A stretch of DNA of 64,000 nucleotides, taken from an uncultured Clostridia bacterium (GTDB taxonomy: Bacteria > Bacillota > Clostridia > TANB77 > CAG-508). The DNA lies in the NCBI GenBank assembly GCA_944392665.1, contig CALXXJ010000004.1, positions 2,478 to 66,477 on the forward strand, read 5' to 3'. This document shows positions 36,343-49,073 of the stretch, piece by piece; the stretch's first letter is position 1, and each line of letters begins with the position of its first letter. The position numbers and the translations under genes were made by a program. Under the pieces are notes generated by a model, which ran no database searches, was not told the DNA's origin, and saw nothing but the letters and a program-made list of their open reading frames with translations.

Positions 36343-38070
36343 TTAAACTCTTTTTAATTCCTCATAACGTTTTACTTTTTGTGTTGTTGTTTTAATCAAA
36401 GGTTCTGTTGTTATGGTGATTTGTTTTATATGTTTAAATACTGGCAATTGCTTATTAATCTCTTTTATTTCTTTCCAAATGCTATCTTTGTATTCTTTTT
36501 CTGTCTTTTCTCCTAACTTTTCCTTTATAATATCTTTATCATATACAATTTTAGCACATAACATGGTATCTGTTTTATCTTTTTCTCTTTGATAAACTAA
36601 GGATTCTGTTACATAAGGAAGTTTGTTAATCAAAAACTCGATTTCTTGTGGATACACATTTTTTCCATTCCTTAAAACAATAATATCTTTTTTTCTACCT
36701 GTTACATAGATAAATCCATCTTCTGTTATGTATCCATAATCTCCTGTTCTAAACCACCCGTCAACAAATGCTTTCTTATTTTCTTCCTCATTATGATAAT
36801 ATCCCATCATAACACTTGGACCTTTTACTAAAATTTCTCCTTCGCCATTTTCATCTGGGTTTTCTATTTTTACATTTAGACTAGGTAAGGCTAATCCTAC
36901 GGAACCCGGTCTTTTTTCCTTATCTGACTCTGCAGCAATAACTGGTGATGTTTCTGTCAAACCATATCCTTGTACTAGTGCAATTCCAAAATTATTGAAT
37001 CCTACAATTGTTTCTTTATCCATAGGAGCTGAACCATATAATACTAAACGAATATTTCCACCTAAATTATTTAAGATTTGTTTAAAAATAACTTTTCTTA
37101 AATCTATTTTACATTTCAAAAGTCCATTCGATAATTTTATCATTATATTGATTAATTTATCTTTTCCTTGATCATGAATCGCCTTTTGAATCTTTTTGTA
37201 CATAGTTTCCAACACGAGCGGAACTGCTACAAATACAGAAACTCTATATTCTGCCAGATTTTTTTGAATATATTTTAATCCATCACAAAAGGCTACTGTA
37301 CATCCACTATAAAATCCATAAAGAAATGTTACCGTACATTCAAATGTATGATGAATTGGTAAAAAAGAAAGTAATGTATCTGTTGGATATAGCTTTACCC
37401 ATGAAGCAAAATCTGATAAATTAGCACATATATTTTTTTGAGATAGCATAACGGCTTTTGGAAGATTTGTCGTTCCTGATGTAAATAACATGATGGACAT
37501 TTTTTCAGGATTAATTTCTACTTTCTCATAACGGTCATCTCCATTTTTTACTAGTTCTTCACCTTTTTTCATTAATTGTGAAAATTTTTCTACTTTGTTG
37601 TCTTTTATATCATCCATACAAACTAGCATTTTTAGATTTACATTTGTATCTTTCTTTAGTTTTTTCATGACTTCTACATATTTTTTATCAAATATAGCAA
37701 CTTCTGCCTCACTTCTTGTTACTAAATTTTCTATCTCATTGTCTGGAAGCGCTTTATCTAATGGAACAATAATCATATTTCCACTTGTAACTGCTAAATA
37801 ACTAATACACCACTCGTATCGATTATTTCCTATAAGCACAATTTTCCTACCTTCTAATCCTTTATTTAATAATTCTGTTGAAAAGGCTTTTATGTCTTTT
37901 CCTACTTGTTCATATGTCTTCTCTACATATTCTACATGTTTTAAATCTCCGTTTTTCTTATACTTATAGGCTACTTTATCTGCATAATTTTTAACAGAAT
38001 ATTCTATCATCTCCCTATAATTTTTTACAATTCTTGGCTCATACACCTTTCTATTTTCATTATCTCCCAT
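36343..38070 (-). CDS. AMP-dependent long-chain fatty acid-CoA ligase (FadD-like)
   Basis: 575 aa. IMLFTSGTTNLPKAVMLS (AMP-binding core), GYGLTETS, FRTGDYGYITEDGFIYVTGRKKDIIVLRNGKNVYPQEIE. Confidence 0.85.
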   Translation of the reverse strand: MGDNENRKVYEPRIVKNYREMIEYSVKNYADKVAYKYKKNGDLKHVEYVEKTYEQVGKDIKAFSTELLNKGLEGRKIVLIGNNRYEWCISYLAVTSGNMIIVPLDKALPDNEIENLVTRSEAEVAIFDKKYVEVMKKLKKDTNVNLKMLVCMDDIKDNKVEKFSQLMKKGEELVKNGDDRYEKVEINPEKMSIMLFTSGTTNLPKAVMLSQKNICANLSDFASWVKLYPTDTLLSFLPIHHTFECTVTFLYGFYSGCTVAFCDGLKYIQKNLAEYRVSVFVAVPLVLETMYKKIQKAIHDQGKDKLINIMIKLSNGLLKCKIDLRKVIFKQILNNLGGNIRLVLYGSAPMDKETIVGFNNFGIALVQGYGLTETSPVIAAESDKEKRPGSVGLALPSLNVKIENPDENGEGEILVKGPSVMMGYYHNEEENKKAFVDGWFRTGDYGYITEDGFIYVTGRKKDIIVLRNGKNVYPQEIEFLINKLPYVTESLVYQREKDKTDTMLCAKIVYDKDIIKEKLGEKTEKEYKDSIWKEIKEINKQLPVFKHIKQITITTEPLIKTTTQKVKRYEELKRV

Positions 38071-38138
38071 ACGCTCCCTCCTTTTTTCTTCATTGTATCG
38101 TTATTCTTTTTATTTTTCAAGACATGACAATATTTAAA

Positions 38139-38358
38139 TTTTGAAATTTTTACAAGCAAGGTGGTATGTATTATTTTTTGAATTCATTGACGAATGTGCC
38201 GTGGAATAATTGTATAAATTCTTAGTTTTAAATAAATGAGGAAGCGCGAGCAGCGAGAGGCTCGTTTATTTGAAACTTAGAAGTTATAAATTATGTAACA
38301 AGCCGAGGAAATAATTCAAAAAATAATACATACCACCTTGCTTGTAAAAATTTCAAAA
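38139..38358. repeat. 220-bp palindromic element with perfect 46-bp terminal inverted repeats (MITE-like or long hairpin)
   Basis: 38139-38184 TTTTGAAATTTTTACAAGCAAGGTGGTATGTATTATTTTTTGAATT is the exact reverse complement of 38313-38358. Inner arms pair imperfectly around a GC-rich core GAGGAAGCGCGAGCAGCGAGAGGCTC. Confidence 0.85.
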
Positions 38359-47739: not shown

Positions 47740-47993
47740 TATCTTTTGTAAAATCACACTATGAATAGTTGCTGTTTTTTCTGTAAAAACAAAATAATTA
47801 TTTTACATTTACACATAATTACCTATTATTTTTATTGTATTTTTAATTAGATTTTTTGTATATTTTACAAAAATTATAAAAAATAACTAGTCATAAAAAT
47901 CGAGTTTTTTACACATAAAATCGTGTAAAAAGCTTGATTTTTATTTTTTTTATGAATATAATAATTCAAAGTTTAGTTTAAAAGGAGGATATT

Positions 47994-49073
47994 ATGAGAA
48001 CACATTTACATGGCGTAGAAAATACAGAAAACATAGAAAATAATTCATATCGAATTATTGCTGTGGATGATGAAGAAGGCATTGTAGATTCTCTATCTAT
48101 ATTTTTAAAACGTTCTGGATATGATTTTACTGGTGTTACAGACCCGCAACAAGCTATTCAGCTTGTAAAAGAAGAACATTTTGATTTAATGATTTTAGAC
48201 TTTATCATGACACCTTTTCATGGAGACCAAGTTGTTGAAGAAATCAGAAAATTTAATAAAGATTTATATATTTTATTACTAACAGGACATAAAGATTTAG
48301 CTCCACCTTTAGAAACTATTAGAAGGTTAGATATCCAAGGATATTGTGAAAAAAGTGATAAATTCGACCAATTACTTTTATTAATTGAGTCAGGTATCAA
48401 ATCTATTAAACAAATGAATGAAATTAAAGAGATAAATGCCAAATTGTCTGATACATACGAAAAATTAGAACAAGCATATTTAGATTCTATCAAAACTTTA
48501 AGATACACAATTGAAGCAAAAGATGTGTATACAAGAGGACATTCTGATAGAGTTGCTGCTATTTCTGTGTTAATTGGTAAAAAATTAGGGTTATCAGATG
48601 AAGATTTACATACTTTAGAAATTGGTGGATTATTCCATGATATTGGAAAAATTGGTGTTCCAGATAGCATATTATTAAAAGAAGCCAAACTAACAGATGA
48701 AGAATATTCACAAATTAAACAACATCCTAATATTGGTGTCCATATCTTATCAAATGCTTCTATATTTGATGATATTTTGCCAATTGTAGAACATCATCAT
48801 GAAAAATATGATGGAACAGGATATCCAGGAAAACTTGCAGGAAATGATATTCCATATTTAGCAAGAATTGCAACGATTGCAGATAGCTTTGACGCTATGG
48901 CTTCTAGAAGAGCTTATCGTGACTCTTTAGATTTAGACACAATTATTTCAGAATTTGAAAGATGTAGAGGAACACAATTTGACCCAGAATTAGATGATAT
49001 ATTCTTAGACATTTTAAAAAATCATTATGATGAAATACAAGAAATACAAGAAAAATATAAACCTGAACAATAG
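47994..49073 (+). CDS. Response regulator with HD-GYP output domain (RpfG-type c-di-GMP phosphodiesterase)
   Basis: REC (IIAVDDEEGI.. DLMILDFIMTP.. LLLTGH). HD-GYP: RGHSDRVA.., GGLFHDIGKIGVPD.., HHEKYDGTGYPGKL. AAAGGAGGATATT precedes the ATG. Confidence 0.9.
   Translation: MRTHLHGVENTENIENNSYRIIAVDDEEGIVDSLSIFLKRSGYDFTGVTDPQQAIQLVKEEHFDLMILDFIMTPFHGDQVVEEIRKFNKDLYILLLTGHKDLAPPLETIRRLDIQGYCEKSDKFDQLLLLIESGIKSIKQMNEIKEINAKLSDTYEKLEQAYLDSIKTLRYTIEAKDVYTRGHSDRVAAISVLIGKKLGLSDEDLHTLEIGGLFHDIGKIGVPDSILLKEAKLTDEEYSQIKQHPNIGVHILSNASIFDDILPIVEHHHEKYDGTGYPGKLAGNDIPYLARIATIADSFDAMASRRAYRDSLDLDTIISEFERCRGTQFDPELDDIFLDILKNHYDEIQEIQEKYKPEQ

Follow-up and report, generated by a model that had tools for sequence, protein, structure and literature searches.

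Why should a non-ribosomal peptide synthetase (NRPS) sit directly in front of a receptor-type histidine kinase and close to a response regulator of the HD-GYP type? The question is raised by a stretch of 64,000 nucleotides from an uncultured Clostridia bacterium (NCBI GenBank assembly GCA_944392665.1, contig CALXXJ010000004.1, positions 2,478 to 66,477 of the forward strand; referred to below, at its full length, as the window). The first-pass annotation of this stretch had described a set of four genes, an acyl-CoA ligase, a dimodular NRPS, a kinase with a seven-transmembrane (7TM) sensor and an HD-GYP regulator, and had suggested a self-contained produce-and-sense circuit. The four-gene content is borne out by the open reading frames (ORFs) and their Pfam domains, and the suggestion itself gains support from two lines of sequence comparison, the conserved linkage of the genes and the co-diversification of sensor and synthetase. 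We consider it slightly better than an even bet that the cell senses its own (acyl-)dipeptide aldehyde by means of the cognate kinase, with cyclic di-GMP (c-di-GMP) as the output via the regulator, which has a receiver (REC) and an HD-GYP domain.

The same annotation had made its suggestion depend on the kinase and HD-GYP genes being kept beside NRPS orthologues in other genomes, and kept they are, in both directions of search. Starting from the NRPS, all seven distant homologues (38-57% identity) have a HisKA_7TM kinase directly downstream. A REC-HD_5 gene follows downstream in all seven as well, on the same strand in six of them; in the locus L013 it is inverted and lies behind one intervening gene. 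The flanks differ, with Tex on the other side in L021 and recombinases plus a GH94 gene in L022. A scan with the NRPS alignment caught generic NRPS motifs and returned mostly unrelated synthetases, L024 and L082 being its useful hits; the unrelated loci (L025, L036, L068, L076 and L081) have neither the kinase nor the regulator and provide negative controls. Starting from the kinase, an alignment of ten sequences gave 80 loci from 80 species-level genomes at 53-98% kinase identity, with more than 586 matching stretches in the collection searched. In the window's own clade (clade 1) an NRPS ends just upstream of the kinase in all 76 loci with enough upstream sequence, and the regulator is found within 10 kb downstream in approximately 69 of these 76.

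The three genes recur in a second deep clade (clade 2), entered through L082, a distant match in a metagenome-assembled genome (MAG) of the Oscillospiraceae. In L082 the NRPS, the kinase, a REC-GAF-like-HD-GYP regulator and a ligase are encoded on one strand by genes that overlap or abut. In the cultured Qiania dongpingensis (CP060634; L184, 8001-22203) two more genes follow in the operon, for a stand-alone carrier protein and for a phosphopantetheinyl transferase (PPTase). The resulting six-gene operon of NRPS, 7TM kinase, REC-DUF3369(GAF-like)-HD-GYP regulator, AMP ligase, acyl carrier protein (ACP) and PPTase is also found in L185, L186 and L187-L266. A kinase-based scan of clade 2 covered 80 loci from Lachnospiraceae, Oscillospiraceae, Erysipelotrichaceae (Holdemania filiformis DSM 12042), Christensenella and others. 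The NRPS lies upstream of the kinase in 80 of 80, the regulator is present in 77 of the 77 loci with downstream sequence, and ligase, ACP and PPTase are found in 73, 69 and 56 of the 80, respectively. Identity between the window and clade 2 amounts to 27% for the NRPS, 32% for the kinase (full length), 32% for the ligase and 47-50% for the regulator. Because the triad of NRPS, 7TM kinase and REC-HD-GYP regulator is kept in two deep clades with different flanks, it is a functional module and not a case of inherited synteny.

Within the module the synthetase and the kinase are tied most closely. The kinase ATG lies 4 nt past the NRPS stop codon and its GGAGG is formed by the last NRPS codons; with such a junction and the ribosome-binding site inside the NRPS gene, both genes are almost certainly co-transcribed and translationally coupled. 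At the other end, the NRPS ORF as listed (38472-45923) begins from a TTG inside the conserved -10 box. The true start is the ATG at 38511, which follows a GGAGG downstream of the promoter block, and the ORF from this ATG has the length of 2470 aa given in the first-pass annotation. The promoter block is kept in seven of seven close relatives, and the spacer upstream of it varies.

The second line of evidence comes from clade 1, where the 7TM sensor diverges with the NRPS and not with its own kinase core. Protein identities in this clade are 71-91% for Tex, 68-85% for the regulator, 53-73% for the kinase and 34-63% for the NRPS, which makes the regulator the most conserved gene of the module. 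Specificity codes of the adenylation (A) domains were extracted by alignment to a GrsA-PheA sequence that reproduces the canonical DAWTIAAICK; the two A domains of the window read DMALQGGSCK (A1) and DVWYLGGICK (A2). Across 59 full-length clade-1 NRPSs the codes are highly diverse and shuffled between modules, and one code can sit in module 1 of one species and in module 2 of another. Some of them resemble canonical codes and may be called Gly-like (DILQLG[MLV]IWK), Val-like (DAFWLGGTFK), Thr-like (DFWN[IV]GMVHK) and Pro-like (DVQFIAHVAK), and several further ones match no canonical code known to us. In distance-matrix (Mantel) tests on 53 loci, code distance correlates with the distance of the 7TM sensor at r=0.56; the corresponding values are 0.35 (PAS domain), 0.31 (kinase core) and 0.23 (regulator). 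The partial correlation of sensor and code given core and regulator is 0.51 (p=0.001, a significance that is overstated, the Mantel and regression statistics ignoring phylogenetic non-independence). Sensor clusters largely follow the A2 code, and among kinase pairs with cores less than 10% apart the sensors differ by 7% if the codes match and by 44% if they do not. A multiple regression on sensor divergence gives coefficients of 0.45 for the reductase (R) domain, 0.28 for A1, 0.13 for A2, 0.04 for the kinase's own core and -0.01 for the regulator, with the R domain as the strongest single correlate (r=0.68).

Close pairs of loci display how this pattern is built. Between L181 and L174, Tex differs by 1% and the regulator by 2%. 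Their NRPSs are 91-100% identical over residues 1-1000 and 24-76% over residues 1000-2470, and their kinases are 25-62% identical over residues 1-220 and mostly 85-100% over the remainder. At the nucleotide level, identity is 96-100% through the first condensation (C), adenylation and thiolation (T) domains (C1-A1-T1), falls to 50-78% over approximately 5 kb and then returns to 92-100%; the low-identity block comprises C2-A2-T2-R plus kinase residues 1-220. The same mosaic pattern is seen in L167/L132, L128/L126, L120/L132 and L152/L174. If only A1 is swapped (L167/L120, L152/L181), the sensor stays 80-90% identical. In L125/L126 the sensor is 43% different though the A2 code differs at just one of ten positions, and the R domain differs too. 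Among the close pairs, there was none with module 2 and R exchanged while the sensor was unchanged. What emerges is a pherotype-like arrangement, a variable cassette of synthesis and sensor between conserved kinase core and regulator. Sensor co-diversification with the NRPS is what a produce-and-sense circuit predicts, and the joint exchange of NRPS specificity and sensor suggests that the cassettes behave like species-specific signal/receptor dialects.

The chemistry of the putative signal can be read from the synthetase in outline. Pfam finds two Condensation, two AMP-binding and two PP-binding domains and one NAD_binding_4 domain in the NRPS, and no thioesterase (TE). The motifs quoted in the first-pass annotation are all present in the translation, namely HHLIADAWN (residues 133-141), HHIICDG (1163-1169), TGVTGFVG (2099-2106), the YxxxK of the reductase as Y2268xxxK2272, and AFDMFAAEVW and AFDVSIWEFF; GGDSL is found twice. 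Across 22 homologues (38-63% identity) H133, H134 and D138 of C1, H1163, H1164, D1168 and G1169 of C2, the carrier serines S982 and S2018, and G2100/G2103/G2106, Y2268 and K2272 of the R domain are invariant. Domain order, lack of a TE, HHxxxD, both T-domain serines, GxxGxxG and YxxxK together make the enzyme a dimodular R-terminated NRPS. The catalytic residues are also kept across 59 NRPSs of the family, except that the first His of C1 is Asn (NHxxxD) in four members. C2 is a typical LCL-like domain (TycC6, 277 bits, 3e-81, against PDB sequences). C1 (residues 1-440) lies ahead of the first A domain, so that its assignment to the starter position by the first-pass annotation holds for position and for an intact HHxxxD. 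It probably is an active domain, since this motif is kept and C1 (mean distance 0.57) has not diverged more than the other domains (0.55-0.60). Altogether 761 strong homologues were found, most of them 2400-2490 aa long, with the same domain set and from metagenomes. Longer NRPSs of ~3275 aa and ~2803 aa stand upstream of the kinase at the same locus in L154, L171 and L135; these probably are trimodular or extended variants, and the family is therefore not strictly limited to dipeptides.

A likely source of the acyl group is the ligase gene next to the NRPS, which is transcribed divergently from it as previously described. The ligase probably supplies an N-acyl starter unit. Its alleged long-chain specificity found no support, the protein being below every NCBIfam cut-off (best 272 bits versus a cut-off of 476). 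Only about 21 of 76 clade-1 loci have the ligase gene immediately in front of the NRPS, and elsewhere an HtrA gene holds that place. In sequence it is 32% identical to the ligase inside the clade-2 operon, and neither an ACP nor a PPTase was found beside it in the window by Pfam. In clade 2, ligase, ACP and PPTase together with the N-terminal C domain form a classic lipoinitiation set, which supports N-acylation of the first residue by C1. HtrA is encoded upstream of NRPS or ligase in many clade-1 loci; the protein of the window scores 344 bits against the NCBIfam HtrA model, below the cut-off of 470. As a core component HtrA was rejected, since clade-2 operons and some clade-1 loci lack it.

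The kinase downstream of the NRPS had been called a receptor-type 7TM histidine kinase, and all expected domains are in place: HisKA_7TM (PF16927, 128 bits versus a gathering threshold of 28.6), PAS_9, HisKA and HATPase_c (78.8 bits), with an invariant H-box histidine H377. An AlphaFold (AF2) model of residues 1-240 from a 25-sequence alignment has seven transmembrane (TM) helices (pLDDT 85, pTM 0.82). The sensor carries an invariant motif WTNDxHHLFY...GPY, of which clade 2 has the form WTNPLHHLQY, so it is common to both clades; reading the Lys-rich loops by the positive-inside rule would place it at the outer end of TM4 and in the next loop. A Foldseek search of the 7TM model against the PDB gave nothing at E<=0.001; the best match had E=0.014 and a TM score of ~0.5. 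Weak matches were to generic receptor-type 7TM bundles, like those of G-protein-coupled receptors (GPCRs), with no transporters among them. Searched as a profile, the kinase alignment matched close metagenome proteins only.

The regulator likewise agrees with its earlier description as a c-di-GMP phosphodiesterase-type protein, with REC acceptor D69 and the motifs H214-D215, HHE268 and GYP276 all present and conserved in 53 orthologues (Pfam HD_5, 126.9 bits; the NCBIfam NosR-family model reaches 203 bits, below its cut-off of 400). The protein has no DNA-binding domain and therefore cannot itself control transcription of the cluster. Two loci, L024 (9076-21784; the same contig as L149) and L178, have NRPS and kinase without a REC-HD-GYP gene; downstream they encode a GTPase of the CobW family and a protein with a RelA/SpoT domain, which may be a small alarmone synthetase, and upstream a small HD-domain protein. 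The same sensor may here feed another output.

Taken together, a circuit may be outlined as follows. An acyl unit, from the ligase or from primary metabolism (cellular acyl thioesters), would be joined to the first amino acid by C1, the dipeptide would be made by C2, and reductive release by the R domain would yield an N-acyl dipeptide aldehyde, possibly an alcohol. The lipophilic product, or a derivative of it, would reach the membrane-embedded 7TM domain of the cognate kinase and so alter phosphorylation of the REC-HD-GYP regulator, which in turn would alter c-di-GMP hydrolysis and c-di-GMP-controlled cell behaviour; the best reading is that the product lowers c-di-GMP. Product identity, kinase ligand, direction of regulation and c-di-GMP as the substrate are what we infer from sequence at this point. 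In its widest form the idea would be that hundreds of gut Clostridia species, some of them human-associated, share a class of cell-cell signalling not recognised before, with an NRPS-made, species-specific (acyl-)dipeptide-aldehyde "word" that is read by a GPCR-like 7TM kinase and translated into a drop of c-di-GMP, and with new dialects arising by exchange of a 5-kb cassette; communication would then be what the orphan dipeptide-aldehyde clusters of the gut natively serve, and protease inhibition would be secondary or additional. We put this forward tentatively and give it rather less than an even chance.

Several observations weigh against a produce-and-sense circuit. The partial correlation of sensor and code drops to 0.18 (p=0.001) once R-domain distance is also controlled, and the overstated Mantel significance applies here as well. 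The sensor segment adjoins A2-T2-R, such that linkage alone could give co-inheritance, and crossovers are expected in the first conserved stretch past a divergent block, which is the kinase core. The number of independent swaps is small, perhaps five or six, and in some loci the sensors are fairly alike (distance 0.15-0.24) despite different A2 codes. Clade-2 codes are nearly constant, so there are no dialects in that clade and the co-diversification test is uninformative there. The regulator is truly missing in L127, L149, L178 and L180. No GG[DE]EF or EAL..R motif was found in window ORFs above 150 aa by a six-frame regular-expression search, and Rfam at gathering thresholds detected only four tRNAs in the window and no c-di-GMP riboswitch. 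Against PDB sequences C1 is divergent, and its typing as a canonical starter C domain is not clear-cut: TycC6 (LCL) scores 100 bits (best 1.6e-27), the RzmA starter C domain 61 bits and CDA C1 48 bits. Finally, products of related gut NRPSs have been reported as host protease inhibitors, which offers another possible purpose.

This last point leads to a reading in which the product is directed outward, as an inhibitor of proteases of the host or of competitors, and kinase and HD-GYP protein sense some other cue (envelope stress, a host or dietary molecule) and are merely co-expressed, sensor variation being due to linkage to a recombination hot spot. We regard it as unlikely, yet deserving serious attention. 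For related gut clusters, peptide aldehydes with inhibitory action on cathepsins have been reported as products (PMC12282076, PMC12327764). In the window's clade a serine protease, HtrA, is often encoded nearby, clade 2 keeps the linkage without code diversification, and the residual correlation of 0.18 would fit as well. Convenience of co-expression, however, is hard to credit as the sole cause of a linkage that is invariant in approximately 156 loci from two deep clades whose flanks are unrelated. A shared external cue predicts a conserved sensor, and yet the sensor is the most variable part of the kinase. It tracks the NRPS and not its own core, A1 contributes independently from 5 kb away, and among close pairs module 2 plus R was never exchanged without a change of the sensor. 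Inhibition and sensing of one and the same product are not mutually exclusive.

A different kind of doubt concerns not the circuit but its chemistry. If C1 were inactive, or used a short acyl-CoA or another donor, the dipeptide aldehyde could cyclise to a (dihydro)pyrazinone and be sensed as such. The weak similarity of C1 to solved C domains of any type as compared to the score of C2, the four NHxxxD members, and a ligase that is absent from most clade-1 loci all point this way, as does AusA, which is the best curated model and matches T1-C2-A2-T2-R; moreover, pyrazinones act as signals in other bacteria (PMC11480411, PMC10979478). An acylated amine, on the other hand, cannot form a pyrazinone. 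C1 is full-length in every member of the family, keeps its second His and its Asp in all members tabulated and does not diverge faster than other domains, and clade 2 pairs a homologous C1 with the lipoinitiation set; we thus deem this variant rather improbable. Still less probable is a 7TM domain that serves as a membrane dock or exporter-like partner of the NRPS, or as a self-protection monitor of the membrane product load, and that co-evolves with the R domain by contact. The R domain is indeed the strongest correlate of sensor divergence and no dedicated exporter is found in the window. But R is also the DNA segment nearest to the sensor, and linkage explains the correlation equally well; the Pfam family is defined as the N-terminal sensor region of histidine kinases, the weak Foldseek matches are to receptor-type bundles and not to transporters, and L185 in clade 2 carries separate ABC exporters. 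Mere neighbourhood by inherited synteny in one lineage, with no functional link, could finally be invoked on the grounds that the wider region (HtrA ... Tex, ABC-F) is often syntenic in the window's clade. It is hardly credible, as the triad persists where flanks are rearranged or replaced (L021, L022) and, in clade 2, in several families with entirely different flanks, junctions are operon-like, and sensor and NRPS share mosaic boundaries.

The remaining content of the window was surveyed by running Pfam on the 37 further ORFs that are 120 aa or longer (Table 1). The first-pass annotation had listed neither a TE nor a PPTase gene, and the scans agree; no GGDEF domain and no dedicated exporter turned up in these ORFs either. 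An MbtH-like gene (~70 aa) would be below the ORF size cut-off, and there is little space for one between the genes of the cluster. At 6.6 kb upstream there is an ABC-2 transporter operon, which is not conserved beside distant orthologues. The ligase/NRPS intergenic region holds a 232-nt element with 52-nt terminal inverted repeats (96% complementary), which is present in the window, in L001 and in L003 (here with an extra nested insertion), diverged in L004 and L005 and absent from L006 and L007; it looks like an insertion of the miniature inverted-repeat transposable element (MITE) type upstream of the conserved NRPS promoter. Genes for a DAO-Rieske fusion oxidoreductase and for DUF4153/DUF2975 membrane proteins adjoin HtrA and NRPS in other species (L014, L017, L019) and are ~27 kb away in the window, hence the region has been rearranged. 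The window further contains a complete V/A-type ATPase operon (subunits C/AC39, I, c, A, B, D). Two genes of the cytidine/deoxycytidylate-deaminase family flank the module at a few kb; both are kept in close relatives and have no evident tie to the module. There is also a second, small histidine kinase adjoined by a 481-aa protein without Pfam match, and no response regulator is evident there. The window is ~27% G+C, and its closest relatives are MAGs labelled uncultured Clostridia or Eubacteriales from guts of mouse, rabbit, human and other animals.

Table 1. Features of the window in order of the module, followed by other genes and elements; NRPS domain spans are approximate.
Feature	Position (nt)	Strand	Residues (aa)	Basis or remark
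HtrA-type serine protease with PDZ	35052-36233	-		Pfam Trypsin_2 + PDZ
ANL-family acyl-CoA/acyl-AMP ligase ("FadD-like")	36343-38070	-	575 aa	Pfam AMP-binding (231 bits) + AMP-binding_C_3
Predicted sigma-70-type promoter of the NRPS-kinase operon, TTGATT-17-TATAAT	38444-38472	+		Consensus scan, 10/12 matches
Dimodular NRPS, C1-A1-T1-C2-A2-T2-R	38511-45923	+	2470 aa	Pfam
NRPS C1	38511-39830	+		
NRPS A1	39888-41360	+		
NRPS T1	41376-41564	+		
NRPS C2	41619-42908	+		
NRPS A2	42969-44465	+		
NRPS T2	44478-44690	+		
NRPS R	44802-45920	+		
Sensor histidine kinase, 7TM-PAS-HisKA-HATPase_c	45928-47739	+		Pfam
Kinase 7TM sensor	45928-46623	+	1-232	
Kinase PAS	46624-46983	+	233-352	
Kinase DHp/CA	46984-47739	+	353-603	
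REC-HD-GYP response regulator	47994-49073	+		Pfam Response_reg, HD_5, HD
Regulator REC		+	21-130	
Regulator HD-GYP phosphodiesterase domain		+	170-333	
Tex	49255-51438	-		
DUF4153/DUF2975 membrane proteins	3198-5261			
DAO-Rieske fusion oxidoreductase	7557-9293			
Protein without Pfam match	12420-13865	-	481 aa	
Small histidine kinase	13942-15021	-	359 aa	HisKA + HATPase_c
V/A-type ATPase operon	19644-27682			
ABC-2 transporter operon	28866-31899			
Cytidine/deoxycytidylate-deaminase-family gene	33186-33656			
232-nt element with terminal inverted repeats	38133-38364			
Cytidine/deoxycytidylate-deaminase-family gene	51591-52082			

How does the module compare to systems that are already known? 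Its synthetase has the C-A-T-C-A-T-R order, the gut Clostridia hosts and the expected reductive release, to (N-acyl) dipeptide aldehydes, of the dimodular R-terminated NRPS family of gut Firmicutes; it is only ~27% identical to the clade-2 enzymes and belongs to a separate clade of small low-GC uncultured Clostridia. The family, with dipeptide aldehydes and pyrazinones as products, was reportedly described by Guo et al. in 2017 in Cell, and the ruminopeptin (rup) cluster of Ruminococcus bromii is said to have been reported by Schneider & Balskus in 2018. Clade 2 very probably overlaps this published family. More recent papers, which summarise Guo 2017 and Schneider & Balskus 2018, report that related clusters make cathepsin-inhibiting peptide aldehydes (PMC12282076, PMC12327764), and the gut dipeptide-aldehyde clusters rank with the most prevalent and most strongly transcribed biosynthetic clusters in the human microbiome (PMC12282076). 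As to their role for the producer, the comparative data propose that a kinase of the same operon may read the product, with c-di-GMP as output. In the literature searched we found no description of the NRPS-kinase-HD-GYP linkage or of sensor co-diversification, the primary papers on the gut family aside, whose cluster maps may show the clade-2 neighbours. The module offers a candidate receptor for a non-ribosomal signal as well as natural sets of matched and mismatched signal-sensor cassettes, and the sister operon is at hand in cultured strains (Qiania dongpingensis, Holdemania filiformis DSM 12042, Eisenbergiella porci, Zongyangia hominis). If the circuit holds true, quorum-sensing-like pherotype communication would also include non-ribosomal peptides as well as gut anaerobes that are abundant and mostly uncultured.

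The nearest curated relative is AusA, the aureusimine synthetase of S. aureus, likewise dimodular with a terminal reductase. The NCBIfam equivalog model (NF047350) gives 1518 bits and matches residues 944-2464; assignment to this equivalog was rejected, as the score is below the cut-off of 2500 bits and the N-terminal part is unmatched. AusA has the order A-T-C-A-T-R without an N-terminal C domain. Unlike AusA with its AusB, the NRPS of the window has no adjacent PPTase, and we know of no two-component system linked to Aus. Further reductase-released aldehydes serve as autoinducer-like signals or give rise to them, as in Pvf of Pseudomonas, the leupeptin-derived pyrazinones of Klebsiella oxytoca and myxobacterial coralinone (PMC10194917, PMC11480411, PMC10979478). 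The putative signal of the window would likewise be a reductase-released peptide aldehyde, which brings it near to these pyrazinone and pyrazine signals in origin. To our knowledge, neither a dedicated receptor kinase in the same operon nor a co-diversifying sensor has been described for any of these systems.

In gene logic the locus resembles the Rpf/DSF (diffusible signal factor) system of Xanthomonas, in which the ligase RpfB, the synthase RpfF, the kinase RpfC and the REC-HD-GYP protein RpfG lead to c-di-GMP hydrolysis: a synthase, an acyl ligase, a membrane kinase and a REC-HD-GYP regulator are encoded side by side in both. The synthase of the window, in contrast, is an NRPS and not a crotonase, its 7TM-PAS kinase is without REC or HPt, and the hosts are Gram-positive anaerobes. 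It is not a member of the Rpf/DSF group, and the likeness of logic implies no homology beyond the REC-HD-GYP architecture. In population structure, the parallel is to agr (AgrBDCA) and comQXPA, in which hypervariable signal genes and the sensor part of the receptor are exchanged between close relatives within a conserved core. The cassettes of the window's clade are organised in the same way. However, the signal of agr and comQXPA is a ribosomal modified peptide and their regulator a transcription factor, whereas here a putative non-ribosomal signal would act through a second messenger; an assignment to agr was accordingly rejected. The NRPS is thus of a known kind (dimodular, R-terminated, from gut Firmicutes) and the regulator is RpfG-like, and what appears to be new is the linkage to the kinase together with the co-diversification of its sensor.

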